DNA of 64,000 bases from a virus. Where the stretch lies: positions 48,192-112,191 of the IMG/VR virus record IMGVR_UViG_3300017917_003565; one strand, written 5' to 3'. The notes beneath the pieces were generated by a model. The model saw only the letters and a program-made list of their open reading frames with translations. It was not told the origin of the DNA and did no database searches. A program made the position numbers and the translations under genes. This document shows positions 12,873 to 59,149 of the stretch, one piece after another; the first letter of the stretch is position 1, and the number at the start of each line of letters is the position of its first letter.

Positions 12873-15800
12873 ATGACCCAATATGTTATCAACATCGGAG
12901 CCTTGCCCAATGATGGCACGGGCGATCCGCTTAGAACCGCTTTTAACGAAGTAAATCTCAACTTTGACCAGGTTTTCGCCGCGGGTCCGGTACTGAGCAA
13001 TATTCGGATAGCCAACAACACCATACTCACTACCAACACCAATGGAAACTTGGTTTTGGCACCCAATGGCATAGGCCTAGTGCAATCCAATGTCAGCATC
13101 GTGCCTAACTCGGCCAACATACGCAATCTAGGAAGCGCAGATCGTCGTTGGAGCACGGTGTACACACAGTATCTGGACGTTTCGGCCAATCTCACCATCA
13201 GCGGAAACATCATCTACAACGGCGACCTAAATGTGGCCGGAAATCTCACAGTCAATGGCGATCTTATCGAAGTCGGCAACATCGTCACAGACAGTAAAAC
13301 CATACAGTTAGCCAACACCGCAGGTACTACCGCCGCTGCCAACGGGTCGGGTATCACTGTGGGGGCCAACGATCTTATAGCCACTTACCTTTTTGACAGC
13401 TCAGCTGATGCCTGGACCACCAATATCGGCATTACGGCCGTGGGCAATATAGCAGCACCTTATTTCTTGGGCAACGGTAGCCAGCTTTCCGGCGTACGAG
13501 CAGATACCTTGGTCGGCAACACCCTGAGTTCCAATGTGTTGTTCTCCAGCCTAACTTCCGTGGGCACCTTGACTGCGCTAAATGTAACTGGCAATGTTTC
13601 AGCCACGGGCAACATCATTGGTGGCAATGTTGAAACCACAGGACTGATCACAGCCACGGGCAACATTATTGGCGGCAACATCACTACCACAGGCAATGTG
13701 TCTGCAGATTATGTCATAGTAGCCGGAGGAATCGTAGCCGAAGCATCGGCCAGTCCGGCTCCTAGCTTATCAGGATTTGGCAATATCACTAGCGGTAATC
13801 TTATCACCACAGGGATGGTAACAGCCACTGGCAATGTCACAGGTGGCAATGTTGCCAGCGGTAACCTGATCACTGGTGTAACTCTGCAGGTGTCTGATGC
13901 CACTGTGTATGGCAACGTTGACAGTGTCATGGTCAATGCCACGGGCAACGTAGTCGCAGGACAATATTTTATTGGTGACGGTAGTTTACTCACAGGCATT
14001 GGTGCCAGCTACAACGATGCTGACGTAGCCAACTTGTTGGCGGCATTCGGTGCTAATATTATCAACAGCACTGGCAACATCACCACCACTGCCAATGTGT
14101 CCGGCGGTTACATACTAGGAGATGGTAGCCAGCTTACCAACTTGCCAGTACAACCCGGCACTTATGGTGACTCCAACGTAGTCACATTGTTGGGTGCATT
14201 TGGCAGCAACAATGTATCGACCACGGGCAACATCACAGCCGGATTGTTGATAGGCAATGGATCGGTTCTAACTGACATCACTGGAGCCAACGTCACAGGA
14301 ACTGTGGCAAATGCGTCCTACGCCACTTCGGCAGGTTCCGCGACTACTGCCACTTCGGCCACTACTGCTAACACAGTGACTGACGCAGCACAACCCAATA
14401 TCACAAGTGTAGGCACATTGACCAGTGTGACCAGCTCGGGTAACGTACAAGGCGGTAACTTGTTGACTGGCGGACTAATTTCGGCCGCTGGTAATGTTAC
14501 AGGTGCTTATATATTTGGTAACGGTAGCCAACTCACTGACATCAATGCCGTCACGATAGATATAACCGATACCAACGGGTTGACCACCGTATACTACCCA
14601 ACTTTTGTAGAGAACAGAAGCACAGGACAGATCGCCCGTGCCGATGTGGACCTTTCATATCGCACAGACACCAATACGTTGACCGTGGGCAATCTATCAG
14701 CCACTGGCAACGTCACAGGCACATTTATACTTGGCAACGGATCACAACTTACTGGCATCATTAGTAGCTATGGCGATTCCAATGTGGCCACATTGTTGGC
14801 CAACTTTGGTTCCAACGCAGTATCAACCACAGGCAACGTGACCAGTGGTAATCTAACAACTTCTGGTACTGTGTCAGCCACAGGCAATGTCAACAGCAAC
14901 GAAATCAATGCCAATCGAGCGGTACTAGGAAACATTGGTGGTAGTAGTATTTCTGCCGATGGTCGTATTTTCACCAGCGGCAATGTGGTTGCAGGAAACG
15001 TAAACTCAAACGGTATACTTTTTTCCACAGGCAACATCGTTGGTCCACATGTCAATGTCACTGGAAATGTAGTAGCTGGCAATGTCAACTCCAATGGCTT
15101 GTTGTTTGCTGTCGGCAACATCGTTGGTGCTAACTTAGATTCTTATGGTATTATCACAGCGATTGGTAATGTCACTACCAATGCCAACGTCAATGCCAAC
15201 AACTTGCATGCATCAAATCGACTCAGTGTTACCGGTAACATAGTAGCCGGCAATGTCAACTCCAATGGCTTGTTGTTTGCTACAGGTAACGTAGTGGGCG
15301 GCAATGTCAACTCCAATGGTAGAATTTTTGCGTCAGGCAATATACAAGGTGCTAACATTGACACCACTGGATCAATTTCAGCTGTGGGTAATGTGATTGG
15401 TGATTACTTCTTTGGTAACGGTAGCCAACTTACTGGCATTGTAGTTTCTGGAGGAACTTCCATAGACAATGGCATATCAAATGTGAGCATAGCTTCTGCT
15501 AATGGTCCAATCACTGTGTCATACAATGGCAGCGGCAATACCTGGACATTTGGCAATACAAGTGTTCCACAAGCTCTGTATTGGCCGGATGGATCATTCC
15601 AGGCCACAGCCTTTGTGGGCCAGGCCACAGACTTGGTCAGTACAGGTAATGCCACAATCACCAGCGATGCGCTTGGTGTATCATATGTATGGACCTTTGA
15701 CGATATTGGAAATCTCACTCTGCCTACCAACGGTAGTATTGTTGTAGATGGCGGCGATGGTGCGATTGGCCCGGTCAGCGACGACTTAGTTATCTCATGG

Positions 15801-17027
15801 GACAACGAGGAAATCCGCTTGGTTTCTGTTCAAGGCAGCATTGAAATGCAGGCTGACAACGCATTCCGTGTACAGACCAGTTATGACGGTCCCAATGTCA
15901 TATATGGCAGCCGCTGGGAATTCAGCAACAACGAAATCGTCAACATCACCGGTGATTTTGGCATTGTGTCTGAAGTAGGAAACCTCACCCTGTCGGGCGG
16001 ACGTGATGGTGTCAACAGCGGCAATACCACAGTGCGAGCAGTTAATGTTGGCGTGTTGGTTGCTGACTGGGTATTTGACAACACTGGCAATCTTACAGCA
16101 CCCGGAAATATCATCACTACTGCCAATGTGTACGGTGATGTAGGATTGTTCAATGACATCAATCTTAATAATGCCGGCACTAACCGTATGCTCTATGTTG
16201 ATGGTGATCGCAACATCTACGACACTGATTTCTCTTATGATTCAGCTAACAGTGTTATATCTGGCACCGGCAACATCATAGCTGGTTATTTCATTGGTGA
16301 CGGTAGTCAACTTACAGGGTTGTCATCAAGTTATGGCAATGCCAACGTAGACGTTTACCTTAGCAGTGGCACCATGTCAGCTAATATCATTACCACAGGT
16401 AATGTAGATAGTGCCAATGTCAACACCAGCAGAATGGTTATAGGCAATATTGGTGGTAGCAGTATTTCTGCCGATGGTCGTATTTTCACCAGCGGCAACG
16501 TAGTAGCTGGCAATGTCAACTCCAATGGCATACTGTTTTCAACCGGCAATATCGTTGGTCCACATGTCAATGTCACTGGCAACGTAGTGGCCGGCAATGT
16601 CAACTCCAATGGCGTTATTTTTGCCACTGGTAATATTACTGCCGTGGGTAATATTATTACTTCGGCCAACGTAGTGGGCAACACCTCGGGCTACACCATT
16701 GGTTACAGAGATATACCACAGGTGGCTTTTTCAGCCAATACTACCGCAGCTCTTATTGACGCTGGTAAACATTATTATTCCACTACAGCAGGTAACTTGA
16801 ATCTAACTTTGCCCGATGATTCATCGGTGACATTCCCAGATGGCGCTACATTGACCATTGTACTCAATGCCGCAGGTAATGTCTTGGTCAGCCAAGGAAC
16901 AGGTGTTACCCTGTACCAAGCCGGTAGCGCAACTACAGGAAATCGAGTGGTAGGAGCCTATGGACTGGCCACAGTGATGAAAGTGTCTGCCAATACCTGG
17001 GTGATCAACGGAACAGGAGTGTACTAA
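12873..17027 (+). CDS. long tail fibre / virion structural protein (Gly-Asn-Thr-rich beta repeats)
   Basis: N-terminal INIGALPNDGTGDPLRTAF baseplate-attachment motif; GNV/GNI repeats; recurrent GxGSxLT; TAAATA upstream (12845-12850). Confidence 0.8.
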   Translation: MTQYVINIGALPNDGTGDPLRTAFNEVNLNFDQVFAAGPVLSNIRIANNTILTTNTNGNLVLAPNGIGLVQSNVSIVPNSANIRNLGSADRRWSTVYTQYLDVSANLTISGNIIYNGDLNVAGNLTVNGDLIEVGNIVTDSKTIQLANTAGTTAAANGSGITVGANDLIATYLFDSSADAWTTNIGITAVGNIAAPYFLGNGSQLSGVRADTLVGNTLSSNVLFSSLTSVGTLTALNVTGNVSATGNIIGGNVETTGLITATGNIIGGNITTTGNVSADYVIVAGGIVAEASASPAPSLSGFGNITSGNLITTGMVTATGNVTGGNVASGNLITGVTLQVSDATVYGNVDSVMVNATGNVVAGQYFIGDGSLLTGIGASYNDADVANLLAAFGANIINSTGNITTTANVSGGYILGDGSQLTNLPVQPGTYGDSNVVTLLGAFGSNNVSTTGNITAGLLIGNGSVLTDITGANVTGTVANASYATSAGSATTATSATTANTVTDAAQPNITSVGTLTSVTSSGNVQGGNLLTGGLISAAGNVTGAYIFGNGSQLTDINAVTIDITDTNGLTTVYYPTFVENRSTGQIARADVDLSYRTDTNTLTVGNLSATGNVTGTFILGNGSQLTGIISSYGDSNVATLLANFGSNAVSTTGNVTSGNLTTSGTVSATGNVNSNEINANRAVLGNIGGSSISADGRIFTSGNVVAGNVNSNGILFSTGNIVGPHVNVTGNVVAGNVNSNGLLFAVGNIVGANLDSYGIITAIGNVTTNANVNANNLHASNRLSVTGNIVAGNVNSNGLLFATGNVVGGNVNSNGRIFASGNIQGANIDTTGSISAVGNVIGDYFFGNGSQLTGIVVSGGTSIDNGISNVSIASANGPITVSYNGSGNTWTFGNTSVPQALYWPDGSFQATAFVGQATDLVSTGNATITSDALGVSYVWTFDDIGNLTLPTNGSIVVDGGDGAIGPVSDDLVISWDNEEIRLVSVQGSIEMQADNAFRVQTSYDGPNVIYGSRWEFSNNEIVNITGDFGIVSEVGNLTLSGGRDGVNSGNTTVRAVNVGVLVADWVFDNTGNLTAPGNIITTANVYGDVGLFNDINLNNAGTNRMLYVDGDRNIYDTDFSYDSANSVISGTGNIIAGYFIGDGSQLTGLSSSYGNANVDVYLSSGTMSANIITTGNVDSANVNTSRMVIGNIGGSSISADGRIFTSGNVVAGNVNSNGILFSTGNIVGPHVNVTGNVVAGNVNSNGVIFATGNITAVGNIITSANVVGNTSGYTIGYRDIPQVAFSANTTAALIDAGKHYYSTTAGNLNLTLPDDSSVTFPDGATLTIVLNAAGNVLVSQGTGVTLYQAGSATTGNRVVGAYGLATVMKVSANTWVINGTGVY
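14928..16613 (+). repeat. 171-bp intragenic duplication (14928-15098 and 16443-16613)
   Basis: identical 57-aa segment GNIGGSSISADGR...GNVNSNG, synonymous DNA differences. Confidence 0.85.
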
Positions 17028-18390: not shown

Positions 18391-18421
18391 TTTCGCTCCT
18401 GTTATCTAACTGTATAACAAT

Positions 18422-18450
18422 ATTATAGCAAAATGGGTTTTTTTAGTCAA
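18422..18450 (-). promoter_or_regulatory. sigma70-type early promoter with extended -10
   Basis: TTGACT-N17-TATAAT with TGC before -10; spacer identical to the promoter at 21123. Confidence 0.8.
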
Positions 18451-18645
18451 CCAAAATAGCCAGGATTTTAGGTGATATAACTCACTGATTTTTAAGTGAT
18501 TTTTCGTGTGTTTCTTGGGATCTATCGAAACAATGTGGCGCCCAGCCACAGAATGCCACAGTCCAAGCCGTGGCCTCAGGAGAGCCCCAGGTCAGGAGAG
18601 TCATAGCGCCGGCGGCACCGGCTATCAAGATTGCGATGATTTTCA

Positions 18646-20771: not shown

Positions 20772-21116
20772 TCATGCTGCCGTCCTTTCACGCACATCGG
20801 TGTTCAAGTTAGGCCGCAGTTCGCGGATCAGAGCACGCTCGACCTGATGTGCCGCACTCTTGCCACGCACCACTGACACGATGCTGTAAGCGAAAGCACC
20901 AGGGCCACGATCACGCAGGGCTTCGTACAGGGCCCAACTCTTGTCTTCGGTGCGTGAGCGATACAGATGTTTATTCATACGCACACGGACTGACTTCAGC
21001 ACCGTGGATTCGGTCTTGGCAGTGACGCCGATGTAGAAATCTGTGCCCGACACGATCTTGTAAACGATGTGGGTACGATCTACTCGTTTTTTGCGGGATG
21101 TTTTTTTACTATGCAT
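20772..21116 (-). CDS. GIY-YIG nuclease-domain protein
   Basis: IVYKIV...FYIGVT, Arg, E...LN. Confidence 0.65.
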
Positions 21117-21122
21117 ACCCAT

Positions 21123-21151
21123 ATTATAGCAAAATGGGTTTTTTTGGTCAA
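21123..21151 (-). promoter_or_regulatory. sigma70-type early promoter with extended -10
   Basis: TTGACC-N17-TATAAT. Confidence 0.8.
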
Positions 21152-21158
21152 TCTGGAC

Positions 21159-41725: not shown

Positions 41726-42520
41726 ATGCAGTTAGCCTTTGATTTAATTTCTGACTTACATGTTGAAACCTGGCCCGAAGATTTTGATTGGTCGTCTCAG
41801 GCTACCAGTGCTTATTGTGTAGTAGCTGGTGATGTATGCCGAGACCGAGATCTCTTGGTTCGTGCCCTTACCAATCTGGGACAGAGTTATCCTGGTGGAG
41901 TGTTCTACATCGACGGCAATGATGAGCATCGTAACCATTTGGAAGACCTCGGTAACAGTTATCTTGACCTAGATCATTTGGTCAGACCCATAGACAACTT
42001 GGTGTACCTACAGGACAATGTGGTGATCATCAATGGTGTAGCGTTCCTTGGAGCCAACGGTTGGTGGAACTTTGAGTTTGGCAGTGATATTGACGCTGAA
42101 CAAACACAGATGTGGTATCAACACAAACTAGGATTATCGGATCAGGCAATCGCAAGCATTGTTAGTTGCGCCAACGGTGACGCAGCTTATTTGATCAACA
42201 GCGTGAAGAAACTGCAAACACACAAAGAAGTTCATGCCATAGTCATGATCAGTCACACTGTGCCATCACCAGAGTTGGTGGCTCATGATCCTGAGTTGGC
42301 TGATACCTATAGATTCAACTGTGTTGGCAACAATCTGCTGCTACATGCCTTGGCAGCAGATTCAGAAAAAAAGATCAATACCTGGTGCTTTGGACACTAT
42401 CACAGCGCAGTGGATCAACTACACAATGGTATACGCTGGGTCAACAACTGCCGAGGCCGTGGGGATTCTCCTTGGCGGCAACACACTTATTTTCCCAAAA
42501 GAATCGAGATCAACTACTAG
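41726..42520 (+). CDS. calcineurin-like metallophosphoesterase
   Basis: SDLH, AGD, GNDEH, SHTVP, FGHYH, NCRG. Confidence 0.85.
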   Translation: MQLAFDLISDLHVETWPEDFDWSSQATSAYCVVAGDVCRDRDLLVRALTNLGQSYPGGVFYIDGNDEHRNHLEDLGNSYLDLDHLVRPIDNLVYLQDNVVIINGVAFLGANGWWNFEFGSDIDAEQTQMWYQHKLGLSDQAIASIVSCANGDAAYLINSVKKLQTHKEVHAIVMISHTVPSPELVAHDPELADTYRFNCVGNNLLLHALAADSEKKINTWCFGHYHSAVDQLHNGIRWVNNCRGRGDSPWRQHTYFPKRIEINY

Positions 42521-42825
42521 GAGATTTCAGGTTCTAGTTTAACCTGGAGAGGATAGTTGTTGGTACGAGCCTGTACCGTGACTTCAATGCCTTTTTGTTC
42601 GGCGATTTCATAGGGCAACACGGCTACCACTGCAGATCCTTCTTCGTGTATGTCATAGGTGATTTTGACTGCGGTCTGTTCGGTATAATCAAAGCTGGAT
42701 ACCAGCGTTTCTATCACAAACTCCATGGGGGTGGCATTGTCGTTGAGATATATGACCTTGAACATGGGCGGTTCTGCTAGACCATGATTGGTTTTAACTT
42801 TTGTAGCGGTATCTGCCTGAGACAT
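42517..42825 (-). CDS. clpS: N-end rule adaptor ClpS
   Basis: FKVIYLNDNATPMEFV, IHEEG, EIAEQK, YPL. Confidence 0.92.
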   Translation of the reverse strand: MSQADTATKVKTNHGLAEPPMFKVIYLNDNATPMEFVIETLVSSFDYTEQTAVKITYDIHEEGSAVVAVLPYEIAEQKGIEVTVQARTNNYPLQVKLEPEIS

Positions 42826-42884
42826 AAAGAGTCCTTGATTGTAGTGGAGAGCAACATGCCCTCCACTGTATTTACTATATTATA

Positions 42885-43325
42885 CTATTTTGTGTACGAG
42901 ATCGCAATGGTCTTTGGCTTGGCAGCTTCAGGCACACGACGCTCAAGACGCACGGTCAAGATACCATTTGTGCATTCTGCGCTGACTACTTCCACATAGT
43001 CGGCCATGGTAAATGTGCGTACAAAACGACGAGCACTGATTCCTTGATGCAGATACTCTGTGCCTAAAACCATGGCTTCAGGTTGCTTCTCACCGGTGAT
43101 CACTAGTTCTCCATCCTTGACAGAAACTTCGATCTCACCATCCACAAAGCCGGCTACGGCTACCTGTATTTCAAAGGTATCGTCACCTGTTTTAAGTATG
43201 TTATAGGGCGGATAGTTGGTTCCACTGGCATGATCGATTTGATCCATGATACGACCAAACAAACGATCTACACCAATGCTGTTGCGATAAAATGGAGTAA
43301 GATCCATAGCTGTGATTTTTGTCAT
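42885..43325 (-). CDS. small heat shock protein (IbpA/Hsp20)
   Basis: IGVDRLF, NYPPYNI, YLHQGISARRF, NGIL, IAI. Confidence 0.93.
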   Translation of the reverse strand: MTKITAMDLTPFYRNSIGVDRLFGRIMDQIDHASGTNYPPYNILKTGDDTFEIQVAVAGFVDGEIEVSVKDGELVITGEKQPEAMVLGTEYLHQGISARRFVRTFTMADYVEVVSAECTNGILTVRLERRVPEAAKPKTIAISYTK

Positions 43326-43399
43326 AATATTCTCCTTTCATTAAGCAAGTTATGACTGTAGTGTAGACCCGACCATCGGCGTCTACACTACTATTTATA
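43321..43399 (-). promoter_or_regulatory. TATAAATA promoter plus ROSE-like RNA thermometer
   Basis: 10-bp stem TAGTGTAGAC/GTCTACACTA; second hairpin GTCATAA-CTTGCT...AGGAG-TTATGAC masks SD and AUG. Confidence 0.7.
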
Positions 43400-43415
43400 A
43401 CAGATTATCTCTGTT

Positions 43416-45340
<1,925 letters not shown>

Positions 45341-45424
45341 AGTTAATCCTTGTAAAGTAAAGCACACCACTGATCAGGATGGTCAGCGGTAATCTTGATA
45401 GGTTGTTTGGAAGTTGACGCTAGG

Positions 45425-45448
45425 TCAGAAGATATATTGCATTGACAT
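45425..45448 (-). CDS. 7-aa leader ORF (MSMQYIF) upstream of groES
   Basis: strong SD AAGGAGG before the ATG, inside a ROSE-like hairpin. Confidence 0.45.
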   Translation of the reverse strand: MSMQYIF

Positions 45449-45538
45449 GTTATTCCTCCTTAATCTAAGCAAGTAATAGTGTAGACCCATTGGGCGTCTA
45501 CAAAACATATTTATAACACTTTTTCCTGGATCTGTCAA
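45446..45538 (-). promoter_or_regulatory. dual sigma70/late promoter plus ROSE-like leader for groESL
   Basis: TTGACA-N17-TATAAA overlapping TATAAATA; TGTAGA/TCTACA stem; CTTGCTT/AAGGAG; homologous to the hsp20 leader. Confidence 0.65.
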
Positions 45539-45565
45539 TATGACAATGACAGTTTTGGAAAGATA

Positions 45566-45787
45566 TCAGTAGAGTTTTTTAGGCAACTGTTGGTCACGCA
45601 GTTTGCGCAACCATCTTGCTCGGGCAGCGCCCTTTTTGCGTTTGCGCACAGTCGTGGGTTTTTCGTAGGTTTCACGGCTTCGTAGTTCATCTAGTAGGCC
45701 AGATTCCTGCACCTTTTTCTTAAACTTACGTAGAGCTTTTTCTACGTTGCCATCTTTGACAATCACACCCTTGCGATATTCTTTCAC
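45566..45787 (-). CDS. rpsU: ribosomal protein bS21
   Basis: [26 protein letters not shown]. Confidence 0.9.
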
Positions 45788-46980
45788 GTATTTTCCTGTA
45801 CCAGTGTCATGGGTGTATTTACCTGGGTTTTATTGATAACCACACGCAGAATATTGTTGCGGGCGTACCTGGACAGATCAAACATGTGCGGCAACAATAC
45901 TCTCTCCAGCTCGCTGTGCAGGCCTCGGGCACCAGTATGAGTGTTTAATGTTCGTTCTGCTATCTGTTCCAGGCTTTCCTGATCAAACTCCAGTTCCACG
46001 CCATCGGCGCTAAACAAGGTCTGATATTGTTTGACAAAGTTTCCTCGTACCTGTGTCAAAATACTGATCAACTGTGCCTTGTCGAGATCGTGTAGATTTA
46101 CATAGGTACCAAATCTACCCACAAACTCAGGAATCATACCATACTTGACTAAGTCATCTGGAATCACTGTTTCCATAGGTATTGCTCGGTCACTTAGTTG
46201 TGCTCCAAATCCAATAGCAGTACCTCGGATCCTGTTTTGTATGATCTTGTCAAGACCCACAAATGCGCCTCCGGCTATGAATAAGATATTGGTAGTATCG
46301 ATCTCTACAGTTTCTCCTGCGGAAGTTTTTCTGGTACCCATAGCAGGTATGCGACACTTGGTGCCTTCGATAAGTTTTAACAAGGCCTGTTGTACTCCTT
46401 CTCCCGACACATCTCTGCTGACTGTGGCACTTTCACTTTTCCTGGCGATTTTGTCAATCTCATCTAAAAAAACTATGCCTCTTTGGCATGCGTCAATGTC
46501 TCCGTTGGCCGCTGTGTACAATCTTGAGATCATGCTTTCTACATCATCGCCCACATACCCTGCTTCAGTCAAGCAAGTGGCATCTGCTATCACAAACGGC
46601 ACTTCAAGATATCGAGCCACGGTGCGGGCCATCAAGGTCTTGCCAGTTCCTGTGGGTCCAATCATCAGTAGATTGGCCTTTTGTATCTCCATGCCTGGGC
46701 GGTTGATACGTTTGTAGTGATTGGCCACGGCCACGCTCAGCACGACCTTGGCTTGGTCCTGACCTACCACACACTGATCTAGATAATCACGTATGTCATG
46801 CGGATCCGGAATCTTTATGGCCGTGGATTTTTTCTGTGCAGTGGTTTTGGTGTCTCTCAGCAGAGTGCTACAAAGATCCACACATTCGTTGCAGATTGCT
46901 ACTTTATGACTGACAATGAGTTTGTTGACTTGATCCTTGTGTTTGTCACAAAAACTGCAATGATCATTGTTCACGGTCAT
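45784..46980 (-). CDS. clpX: Clp protease ATP-binding subunit ClpX
   Basis: CSFC...CNEC zinc domain, [28 protein letters not shown] loop, TGARGL. Confidence 0.95.
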
Positions 46981-46981
46981 G

Positions 46982-48541
46982 TTATGCTGATCCTTGTTGG
47001 TTGGTCAACTTTCTTTCAATGCTGTCACGTTCGGCGTCGCTGAGTAGATCTGGATCGTATTCGCCAGATTCAATCTTGGCTATGAGATGATCAATGTAGG
47101 CATCATCATAGGCATAGATGTCGGTCAAAGCCTTGTCTACTTCTACCCAGAGATTTCCATTGAACTTGTACAAGGTGCTGGGCAACTGATCCACACGCAG
47201 GAACATATCACCTTTCTTGGGATTAAATGGAAAACTGGTTCCAAATCCTTTGACTTCTCCTTTGAGTCCTGTGGGTGCATTATCAGCTTCTAATCCCTGT
47301 GTGGCCATTACACGGGCCTGGAACTCGGAATCTTGCCAGGGCAACTGTTGTATGGCTCCTGAAGCCAGGAGATATCGTTGGCGTTTGAGAGTGTCATCAG
47401 GATTTTCAACCTTCCAGGCACGTTCAGCCAGTTTTTCTGGTGTGTTGATGTTTTCATCCGTGGATTCGTCGGGCAGTGTAGGGGTATTGAGAGGGGCATG
47501 CTCGGCTTCGGAGTCACGTATGACCAATCGCTTGGCATTGGCCCACATGCTGTCAAGGCCTTCAAATATGGACTTTTTCTTGATGGGTTCTTCGACGGGT
47601 GGTTCATATGTACCTGTGTCGATGGACTGAGCCACATTCCGAGCTCGATCAAAAAACACTGTGGTGTCTGTATCTACCTTAGCTTCTTGAAGTTGAGCAT
47701 TGAGTTGATTTATCTGGTCGTCGCTGAGCGAGTTGTTGTCCGGCTCGTAATCAGTGCGTCGTTTACCTGTGGCAAATATGTTTACACCCTGTTCCCATTC
47801 CAAGGTCTTGGTCGCGGCCAACAACAAGGTCAGAGCTAATGGATCAAACACTATGACGATCAAAATAATGACCCAACGCACAGCCTTTTCTAACACATTG
47901 GCCTCAGGATTGTCGCCATAGATCAAAGCCGCTATGTATTTGATTGGCCCAACTTCAGCCTCGACTTTCCGTGCTTCGCTGGCTATAGGTGCTCGTTGTT
48001 CTTGTAGTTTGACGATTTCAGCCTGAGCCCGAGAGATGTCTGCGTTGAGTCTGTTGCGTTCAGTACCCTGGCTACGTCGAAGATTGGCCGCACGTTGCGC
48101 ACCTTGTTCGTCGTTGCTGCGGGCCATCTGTTGATCCACTGCTTCGTCCATCTGCCGCAGAGCCTTGCGAGCGGCTTCGATGTTATCACGCTGTGATTTT
48201 ATTTTGTCGTCAAATATGGCTACCTGGGCCTGTATATCACCTGACGGAACTGCTTGATCTAGGTGCGCTTTGGACAAGAATCCAAACACACCCATGCTGG
48301 TAAGAACCATGAGTATGGCCACTGCGCTTGATAGATATATTTTGTATTGTAGTTCGGCTCGGTGCCAGTATCTATGTAACCACAAGGTACTGACTATTTT
48401 GCCCACTTCTAGGCTCGATCCCAAGATCACAATGGGCCAAAAAGCCGCGGCAAATATAGCCGTAAGGCCTAGTATAGAATAATAGGCAGCACTGACCGAG
48501 ATGATCAGTGCAGTTGCGAGAGTAAGTAAACCAAACCACAT
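46982..48541 (-). CDS. membrane protein with long coiled coil
   Basis: TMs, FGFLSKAH, EVGPIKY, VFDPLA; acidic C-terminus. Confidence 0.7.
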   Translation of the reverse strand: MWFGLLTLATALIISVSAAYYSILGLTAIFAAAFWPIVILGSSLEVGKIVSTLWLHRYWHRAELQYKIYLSSAVAILMVLTSMGVFGFLSKAHLDQAVPSGDIQAQVAIFDDKIKSQRDNIEAARKALRQMDEAVDQQMARSNDEQGAQRAANLRRSQGTERNRLNADISRAQAEIVKLQEQRAPIASEARKVEAEVGPIKYIAALIYGDNPEANVLEKAVRWVIILIVIVFDPLALTLLLAATKTLEWEQGVNIFATGKRRTDYEPDNNSLSDDQINQLNAQLQEAKVDTDTTVFFDRARNVAQSIDTGTYEPPVEEPIKKKSIFEGLDSMWANAKRLVIRDSEAEHAPLNTPTLPDESTDENINTPEKLAERAWKVENPDDTLKRQRYLLASGAIQQLPWQDSEFQARVMATQGLEADNAPTGLKGEVKGFGTSFPFNPKKGDMFLRVDQLPSTLYKFNGNLWVEVDKALTDIYAYDDAYIDHLIAKIESGEYDPDLLSDAERDSIERKLTNQQGSA

Positions 48542-57828: not shown

Positions 57829-57860
57829 ATCCTTCGCTCCTTTTTAGTTTCTATACACAT

Positions 57861-57889
57861 ATTATAGCAAAAAAGGATTTTTTGGTCAA
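57861..57889 (-). promoter_or_regulatory. sigma70-type early promoter with extended -10
   Basis: TTGACC-N17-TATAAT. Confidence 0.8.
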
Positions 57890-58152
57890 TCCCAGGACTT
57901 TTTGTCGCCATACTGCTCATTGTAATCGTAGCCGGCCATGTATTCGGCGATTTCGGCCTCATTGAGATCAGTGACCTTTTCACCGTGGCCGGTGCCTTGG
58001 GTCCACCAGTGCGGATCACGGGGACGGCCGTAATACGAGTCGGCACTACCGCGGTCAAATAAACCACCATGCAGTTTTCGATCAAACTGTGGACCACGCA
58101 AGGCCTGGATGACTAGTTCTTGTTCTTGTTCAGTAAGAATATGGAAATACAT
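57886..58152 (-). CDS. hypothetical protein
   Basis: HGGLFDRGSADSYYGR...YMAGY. Confidence 0.65.
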   Translation of the reverse strand: MYFHILTEQEQELVIQALRGPQFDRKLHGGLFDRGSADSYYGRPRDPHWWTQGTGHGEKVTDLNEAEIAEYMAGYDYNEQYGDKKSWD

Positions 58153-59066: not shown

Positions 59067-59096
59067 ACTGTGGCTCCTATCATTTACTATATCTAT

Positions 59097-59149
59097 ATTA
59101 TAGCAAATAAGCCATTTTGGGTCAACCGCAGGTTAGTACGCACTAACCA
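59097..59149 (-). promoter_or_regulatory. sigma70-type early promoter with upstream palindrome
   Basis: TTGACC-N17-TATAAT (59125-59097); GGTTAGT-ACGC-ACTAACC at 59131-59148. Confidence 0.75.

Follow-up and report, generated by a model that had tools for sequence, protein, structure and literature searches.

A ROSE-like leader and a probable hsp20-derived relic reading frame upstream of groESL in a jumbo phage

On the minus strand of a 64,000-nucleotide (nt) stretch of viral DNA (positions 48,192 to 112,191 of IMG/VR record IMGVR_UViG_3300017917_003565, hereafter the window), the chaperonin genes groES and groEL are preceded by a seven-codon open reading frame (the mini-ORF), whose Shine-Dalgarno (SD) sequence lies inside a two-hairpin leader resembling the ROSE family of RNA thermometers. 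A leader of the same kind stands ahead of the nearby hsp20 gene, and comparison with related phages supports fairly well the view that a duplication placed promoter, leader and ~48 nt of hsp20 coding sequence ahead of groES, where the coding part would then have decayed. Judged by their conservation, the promoter, the 5' hairpin, the hairpin that pairs SD with anti-SD and the AUG are under purifying selection, and because selection keeps the sensor part, the sensor probably still tunes chaperonin expression. An initial annotation of the window had described the layout from which we start (leader, MSMQYIF and a stop, 84 nt with another hairpin, and groES with an SD of its own), all of which is present on the minus strand (Table 1). 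It had read the mini-ORF either as a thermometer-controlled leader peptide relaying to groESL or as the relic of a deleted gene; as to origin, it is the relic alternative that holds up, the mini-ORF and the start of the spacer being closest to the first ~16 codons of hsp20.

The case for this origin is comparative. A GroEL query returned 80 related IMG/VR loci (69-83% identity), most of which share the gene order groES-groEL-hsp20. When the stub, that is, the mini-ORF plus the next ~25 nt, is aligned from its ATG, it is colinear with the first ~16 hsp20 codons, with p <=0.003 in L017, L012 and L004, 0.02-0.05 in four more loci and 0.10 in the window. As a control, we ranked 391 distinct gene starts, drawn from all loci and 8% of them hsp20, by their score against each stub. 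In six of the nine loci tested (the window, L012, L004, L014, L017 and L027) hsp20 ranks first among the 391, and for the window stub the six top-scoring gene starts are all hsp20. Two results tell against this origin: hsp20 is not the top gene in the other three loci (second in L022, fifth in L007 and L015), and an nhmmer profile built from the 5' coding region of hsp20 gives no match to the stubs, in keeping with a faint similarity. Because the profile found nothing, the claim rests on the anchored pairwise alignment and the rank test. The signal is faint but, on these alignments, consistent across loci, and we regard it as fairly well supported that the mini-ORF and the ~25 nt beyond it represent a decayed, frameshifted remnant of hsp20. 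Two other sources were considered and rejected: groES 5' ends score no better than shuffled sequences, and dnaK C-termini lack the block around the stop codon that is described below.

When 3.1 kb were searched with all Rfam families, only two plausible matches emerged, both to ROSE_3 (RF02523, gathering score 43 bits), a family built on the short ibpA thermometers of Pseudomonas. Both cover the full model and fall exactly on the two leaders, at 25.1 bits (E 0.03) for the hsp20 copy and 23.8 bits (E 0.06) for the groES-side copy, and full-length matches are found in eight leaders of seven related loci (24.5-36.3 bits, best E 9e-4). A search of the phage's own record with the RF02523 profile missed even the two known copies and thus had no power. 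In the predicted fold the AUG of the mini-ORF is unpaired, and a 1x1 G/G internal loop leaves an unpaired G opposite the SD. Pairing of the SD with a U(U/C)GCU motif characterises the short ROSE-like thermometers of Pseudomonas ibpA (Krajewski et al. 2013, PMC3669281), and the unpaired G opposite the SD of ROSE elements has been described in a review (PMC13104619).

The likeness to the Pseudomonas ibpA elements extends to two hairpins, a 5' untranslated region of ~60 nt, a hairpin I that begins at the 5' end, is stable and G-C-rich and bears a bulged G, imperfect pairing of the SD with U(U/C)GCU, an unpaired G opposite the SD, an unpaired AUG and a similar hairpin-I core sequence. Like them, the leader sits in the 5' untranslated region between promoter and start codon, if transcription starts where promoter spacing places it. 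The hsp20 copy precedes a small heat-shock gene, and relatives' copies on groES and dnaK likewise stand before heat-shock genes, whereas the groES-side copy in the window opens a 7-codon relic ORF. Further differences are that the elements described here reside in a phage genome, that they follow a sigma70 consensus promoter instead of a sigma32 promoter, that their SD/anti-SD core is flanked by A-U instead of G-C, and that their scores fall below the gathering threshold.

Two points speak against calling the leader a ROSE thermometer. No match reaches the gathering score of 43 bits, either for the window copies or among relatives (14 loci), and hairpin II melts only slightly in silico from 10 to 45 C, as computed with nearest-neighbour partition functions. 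The melting of ROSE elements depends on non-canonical pairs, which lie outside these parameters. In anatomy the leader is thus ROSE-like; in score it is a relative of ROSE_3 below the threshold, as opposed to a certified member of the family; to that extent, the thermometer named in the initial annotation stands.

Could the inverted repeat behind the -10 element be a DNA operator for a repressor, and not an RNA structure at all? A precedent is the CIRCE element through which HrcA controls bacterial groESL, a fixed 9-N9-9 DNA operator of conserved sequence. The phage repeat also lies between promoter and groES, it overlaps the expected transcription start, as is typical of operators, and it occurs on two or three chaperone genes. 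However, an anchored parse of 51 leaders shows outer pairs 3-7 of hairpin I to be paired in all 51, with three to five pair types at each, while the bulged G, the inner C-G pair and the anti-SD core do not vary, and loops range from 2 to 9 nt. (MAFFT followed by RNAalifold placed the arms of these 51 leaders out of register and recovered only two pairs, and was replaced by the anchored parse.) Arms that vary freely with compensatory change, around a conserved bulged G, argue for an RNA structure and against an operator of fixed spacing. Moreover, the half-site distance differs between the two copies in this very genome (9 versus 12 nt), and the whole unit, second hairpin included, matches an RNA family. 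Set against the CIRCE consensus, the phage repeat differs in sequence, in its variable spacing, in its co-varying arms and in its resemblance to an RNA family. We therefore consider an operator highly improbable.

The inverted repeat with its flanks, including the upstream -10 element, occurs exactly twice in the 112-kb record, where chance would predict none. To speak of a second copy, as the initial annotation did, is nevertheless not quite exact, since the window also holds a third, more diverged leader built on the same plan. The latter precedes an 88-residue ORF (26480-26217, minus strand) with a sub-threshold match to Phasin_2 (E 0.002, 18.5 bits, cut-off 24.9). In one relative, the hsp20 leader (L063:5623-5703) gives a sub-threshold match to the Rfam family freshwater-2 (RF02980; 30.7 bits, gathering score 49.9), an orphan metagenomic motif that may be a relative of these phage leaders.

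Ahead of the groES-side leader lies a sigma70-type promoter, P1, which ends 5 nt before hairpin I and whose layout (-35, 17-nt spacer, -10) recurs in the groES-side copies of relatives and in their hsp20 leaders. This spacing would put the transcription start at the foot of hairpin I. The motif TATAAATA at the end of the -10 element was also considered as a T4-type late promoter and rejected in that role; because it occurs only five times in 64 kb and a consensus -35 lies 17 nt upstream, here as in relatives, we read it as part of a sigma70-type promoter. Most genomes of the mini-ORF clade introduced below carry another consensus sigma70 promoter, P2, between mini-ORF and groES. Its counterpart in the window is a remnant that aligns with the relatives' TTGACA and TATACT/TATAAT and that a promoter scan of the window does not call: a -35-like hexamer (45386-45381), a 19-nt spacer and a -10-like hexamer (45361-45356) lacking the A at its second position. 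Because P2 is degenerate here, P1 is probably the main groESL promoter in this phage.

How widely is this arrangement distributed? Related uncultured jumbo phages carry ROSE-like leaders ahead of hsp20, dnaK and groES. A pattern scan of IMG/VR matched at least 120 stretches; among the matches listed, 117 leaders could be parsed, of which 95 belong to hsp20, nine to dnaK and one to groES, a preponderance of hsp20 that agrees with the origin proposed above. Two apparent additional mini-ORF cases from IMG/VR turned out to be start-codon artefacts of the search pattern, the genes in question being hsp20. Leaders stand directly before dnaK (622-631 residues) at L030:1706-1773, L043:5648-5720, L063:1710-1778 and L074:2018-2090, and directly before groES at, for example, L043:3628-3696 and L046:3637-3705. 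ROSE-type control of dnaK or groES is not the usual arrangement in bacteria.

In a quick, midpoint-rooted GroEL tree, leaders with a short ORF upstream of groES are confined to one clade of 21 rows including the window (SH-aLRT, an approximate likelihood-ratio branch support, 94; the clade is not starred), of which a basal member, L029, is without the leader. In more distant, basal lineages, a ROSE-like leader is fused straight onto groES. A sister clade of 21 rows (L018-L067; e.g. L018:3820-3880) shows, upstream of groES, TAAATA followed by a hairpin whose loop holds the -35 of a consensus promoter and whose arms co-vary between phages; it resembles the remains of a leader fused to a promoter.

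A scan of genome contigs with the 18-nt hairpin-I core gave at least 120 stretches, almost all of them chance matches in GC-rich genomes. Among the core matches listed is one genuine small heat-shock protein leader, on a contig of a Novosphingobium metagenome-assembled genome (L154), with the same hairpin-I core as the phage hsp20 leaders, a UUGCU motif and an SD. This likeness fits a bacterial origin of the phage hsp20 gene and its leader.

Conservation offers a way to ask which parts of the groES-side module have mattered since it arose. Between representatives of seven subclades, four-fold sites of groES and groEL are 38-52% identical, that is, near saturation. The 62 nt leading up to the ATG (leader A) are 65-89% identical between subclades, versus 52-57% when shuffled in the same alignment, and mini-ORF plus spacer are identical at random level. 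The positions conserved are the -10 element, the pairs of hairpin I (by way of compensatory changes), the anti-SD, the SD and the AUG, the last of which is found in 20 of 20 loci, with a canonical SD in 18. This retention cannot be put down to concerted evolution, because leaders that share a genome resemble each other no more closely than do leaders of different genomes; gene conversion was accordingly rejected as its cause except in L003, where two leaders (L003:3489-3559 and L003:5669-5736) are 88% identical including loops and upstream bases, which is evidence of gene conversion between the groES-side and hsp20-side copies.

The product of the mini-ORF has fared quite differently. Its peptides differ in sequence, frame and length both between and within subclades (7, 8, 11 or 14 codons, and 34 in L013), so that conservation of the upstream ORF in related phages extends to its start signals but not to its coding content. 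A functional micropeptide might be suspected from the good SD and AUG; with peptides this different in every respect, the idea is close to refuted and we attach almost no credence to it. Because the AUG is unpaired in the predicted structure and has been kept nevertheless, its conservation suggests that translation initiation, or ribosome binding at the very least, has been under selection, and not the product. The leader peptide relaying to groESL that the initial annotation envisaged can hence be upheld only in part: a relay is possible, and favoured by the retention of SD and AUG, but the peptide itself is not conserved.

Part of the sequence downstream of the mini-ORF start is nonetheless conserved. 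A block of 14 nt that spans the stop codon shows no variation among 11 loci; it contains stops in two frames (window; L003-L012) and can form a 4-bp hairpin, its flanks having drifted, and neither a second copy nor a complement of it is present in the window. Relative to its closest kin, the window carries a 2-nt length difference that shifts the stop from TAG to an overlapping TGA within the conserved block. The stretch that follows is so rich in C and poor in G that only 0.1% of 48-nt windows across the 64 kb equal it, making it a candidate rut-like (Rho utilisation) site. A further sign that the upstream transcript matters is the hairpin closer to groES (the proximal hairpin), which most subclades have kept although its sequences differ; where P2 is present, this hairpin falls between the P2 hexamers, and its RNA form is therefore possible only in transcripts started at P1.

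Taken together, these observations suggest a model in which the 5' end of hsp20 was duplicated, its coding stub decayed, and the retained sensor gates ribosome loading in cis on the groESL mRNA, a model to which we give even chances. Imagine that in the ancestor of the clade the 5' end of hsp20 (promoter, thermometer and ~16 codons) was placed between rpsU and groES. The coding stub would have decayed by frameshifts and stop codons into a 7-codon ORF with a meaningless peptide, and the module that was kept would now make up the start of the groES-groEL mRNA. Low temperature would leave the SD hidden in hairpin II; upon warming, the hairpin would melt and ribosomes would load on the mini-ORF. 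Ribosome traffic at the 5' end, terminating beside the C-rich, G-poor stretch, could then shield the 190-nt leader from Rho and/or RNase, leaving more full-length groESL mRNA, with groES translated from its own SD. Melting with temperature, translation of the mini-ORF and the effect on groESL are all steps that we infer. We favour protection from Rho or RNase because of the C-rich stretch, the invariant stop block, the lack of a terminator and the precedent of the rhlA ROSE element. The bolder proposition, that the very act of translating a junk mini-ORF decides the survival of the groESL transcript and that hsp20, groESL, dnaK and the phasin-like gene form a phage heat regulon, is tentative and, in our estimation, somewhat doubtful.

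Known systems provide partial parallels. The leaders of E. coli ompA and B. subtilis aprE stabilise mRNA through a 5'-terminal stem-loop and a ribosome-binding site, and tnaC of E. coli is a leader-peptide/Rho attenuator. Like the former, the phage leader opens with a stable hairpin, behind which lies a ribosome-binding site that need not serve a useful protein; those stabilisers are constitutive, however, whereas here the ribosome-binding site lies inside a thermometer hairpin. The stabilising effect of ompA-type leaders is cited in PMC3669281. A second leader-peptide/Rho attenuator, toiL, lies upstream of topAI (PMC12121999). As in tnaC and toiL, a short upstream ORF is present, and a ribosome near its stop could mask the adjoining C-rich, G-poor stretch. 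The difference is that those attenuators sense a ligand or ribosome stalling via a specific peptide, whereas here access to the SD would be set by temperature, the peptide is not conserved and the rut site is putative. The nearest precedent is the ROSE element of P. aeruginosa rhlA, where, according to a review (Grosso-Becerra et al. 2014 in PMC13104619), better translation at 37 C raises read-through into rhlR by a polar effect of unsettled mechanism. In both cases a thermometer-gated upstream ORF would govern read-through into a downstream gene with start signals of its own; the upstream ORFs there are the full-length rhlAB genes and here there is a 7-codon remnant, for which a polar effect is assumed by analogy.

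Several observations weigh against the sensor-gating model. Neither L006 nor L013 retains the SD of the mini-ORF, and in the sister clade hairpin II and the mini-ORF are both gone, leaving the -10 element and the hairpin enclosing the -35 of the second promoter; because of these losses the module is, on sequence comparison, dispensable in some lineages. In several subclades the stretch past the stop is only 16-25 nt long before P2 begins, which leaves little room for a rut site. The mini-ORF also lies 84 nt from groES, and because of this gap and of the SD that groES possesses, direct translational coupling is unlikely.

The same losses are what one would expect under the main rival explanation, namely that the module has the origin proposed above but lies idle: P1 would serve as a strong promoter and hairpin I as a stabilising 5' hairpin, with thermometer and mini-ORF carried along as baggage. 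The stub is a decayed gene fragment whose peptide is not conserved, groES is equipped with an SD and, in most relatives, also with a separate consensus promoter, and mini-ORF lengths (7-14 codons, with one of 34) resemble those of random AT-rich sequence (p about 0.09 by our estimate). If the module were mere baggage, however, we would not expect anti-SD, SD and AUG to be kept in 18-20 of 20 loci while the adjoining stub has drifted to random level and synonymous sites approach saturation, and structure alone would not preserve an AUG that is unpaired. An idle module is possible, though in our judgement appreciably less probable than a working sensor.

Attenuation, one of the routes by which the initial annotation had its leader peptide act, finds less support. 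In its classical form, translation of the leader peptide would choose between hairpins, one of them an intrinsic terminator in the 84-nt spacer. There is indeed a short ORF followed by a stable proximal hairpin (-12.1 kcal/mol, p=0.007 versus shuffles), equivalents of which, with unrelated arm sequences, occupy the same position in most subclades (p<=0.03 versus shuffles in 11 of 17 loci), and in a longer fold the mini-ORF SD pairs instead with the last codons ahead of the stop. Yet the proximal hairpin is without an adjacent U-tract and a terminator scan does not call it, the mini-ORF stops ~35 nt before it, the alternative SD pairing is not conserved in relatives, and there are no regulatory codons in peptides that are unrelated between subclades. 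What is more, in P2-bearing relatives the equivalent hairpin lies inside the spacer of that second sigma70 promoter. We judge classical attenuation very unlikely.

The proximal hairpin also figures in a further scenario, in which a second ROSE-like unit, weak, situated just upstream and made up of this hairpin and a UGCUU motif (45364-45360) pairing with the groES SD, controls groES directly, and the upstream copy is secondary. The minimum-energy fold at 30 C contains this pairing, with a G opposite a G, and loses it at 37 C; in the L015 group, a U(U/C)GCU motif lies behind a hairpin, 12 nt ahead of the groES SD; and in basal relatives, as noted, the ROSE-like leader is fused directly to groES. 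Against this, neither the window, even in a 101-nt search, nor L015 gives an Rfam match for such a unit, the predicted pairing is marginal and faces competition from an upstream partner, and the same bases align with the -10 region of the relatives' P2. We regard direct gating as unlikely, although less so than attenuation.

Gating through the upstream sensor would, if correct, extend a familiar principle to a new setting. Bacterial small heat-shock genes are the known home of ROSE thermometers, and the same sensor is found here on phage hsp20, dnaK and groES, implying a virus that matches a chaperone supply of its own to temperature by controlling translation, via host sigma70-type promoters and not a heat-shock sigma factor. 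Among phages, lambda cIII is an example of a thermometer, and in the literature we searched, coverage of which was incomplete, the only phage-linked thermometer found was a fourU element in prophage SPbeta, with neither a ROSE-type element in a phage nor a thermometer-controlled leader ORF. What is new is the jumbo-phage chaperone setting with sigma70-type promoters and a sensor that would gate a relic mini-ORF before groESL. The groES-side copy illustrates how such control may spread: promoter, sensor and first codons were probably duplicated, the stub rotted, and sensor and start codon stayed under selection. If translation of the mini-ORF controls read-through, the pair would be a compact natural combination of thermometer and leader ORF, useful as a design for temperature-controlled operons; if the mini-ORF has no effect, it would be a clean case of regulatory baggage persisting after promoter capture.

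Table 1. Features of the groESL upstream region and related elements in the window (window coordinates).
Feature	Position	Strand	Basis or remark
Promoter P1	45538-45508	-	sigma70-type; read directly from sequence
P1 -35, TTGACA	45538-45533	-	17-nt spacer to -10
P1 TG-extended -10 ending in TATAAATA	45515-45508	-	read from sequence
Two-hairpin leader	45502-45451	-	followed by strong SD and AUG
Hairpin I	45480..45502	-	predicted fold: 7 bp, bulged G, two G-C pairs, 4-nt loop
Hairpin II	45451..45478	-	predicted fold and ROSE_3 alignment
Anti-SD U(U/C)GCU motif	45473-45467	-	pairs with SD 45461-45455, G opposite G
Mini-ORF SD	45461-45455	-	AUG 6 nt after SD
Mini-ORF, MSMQYIF-stop, 7 codons	45448-45425	-	translation
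Probable hsp20-derived stub, ~first 16 codons, decayed	45400..45448	-	alignment to hsp20 starts
14-nt block across stop codon	45428-45415	-	invariant in 11 loci
Spacer, 84 nt, mini-ORF stop to groES ATG at 45340	45424-45341	-	sequence
C-rich, G-poor stretch past stop	45377..45424	-	18 C and 5 G in 48 nt
Proximal hairpin	45366..45390	-	predicted fold; 8-bp arms 45390-45383 / 45373-45366
Degenerate P2 remnant	45356..45386	-	alignment with relatives' P2
groES SD	45351-45347	-	groES has its own SD; SD plus gene 45053..45351
groES	45340-45053	-	Pfam Cpn10, E 1.5e-31
groEL	43416..45041	-	Pfam Cpn60_TCP1, E 2e-80
hsp20 copy of leader (source-type)	43399-43323	-	ROSE_3 25.1 bits; fold; -10 element, leader and hsp20 42885..43399
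hsp20	43325-42885	-	Pfam HSP20, E 3e-17
Third, more diverged leader	26545-26478	-	-10-like TAAATA, bulged-G hairpin, UCGCU motif, SD, AUG

The window derives from a 112-kb IMG/VR record that is judged 33% complete, and the phage is therefore a jumbo phage of roughly 340 kb. It has no close relatives in the phage collection, where groEL finds distant matches only. By Pfam, the minus-strand gene order around the element is clpX, rpsU (S21), groES, groEL, hsp20 and clpS. These genes belong to a contiguous proteostasis and translation cluster (42517-48541, minus strand) of ClpS, Hsp20, GroEL, GroES, ribosomal protein S21 and ClpX, followed by a 519-residue ORF that has no Pfam match.

Elsewhere in the window, an element of ~50 nt is repeated at 18402-18452, 21103-21153, 57841-57891 and 59077-59127; on the minus strand it reads as a consensus sigma70 promoter (-35, 17-nt spacer, -10) and probably represents a family of phage early promoters. 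Finally, the region 13400-16700 holds extensive imperfect repeats with a 51-nt period inside long ORFs, which probably encode a fibre or another repetitive structural protein.

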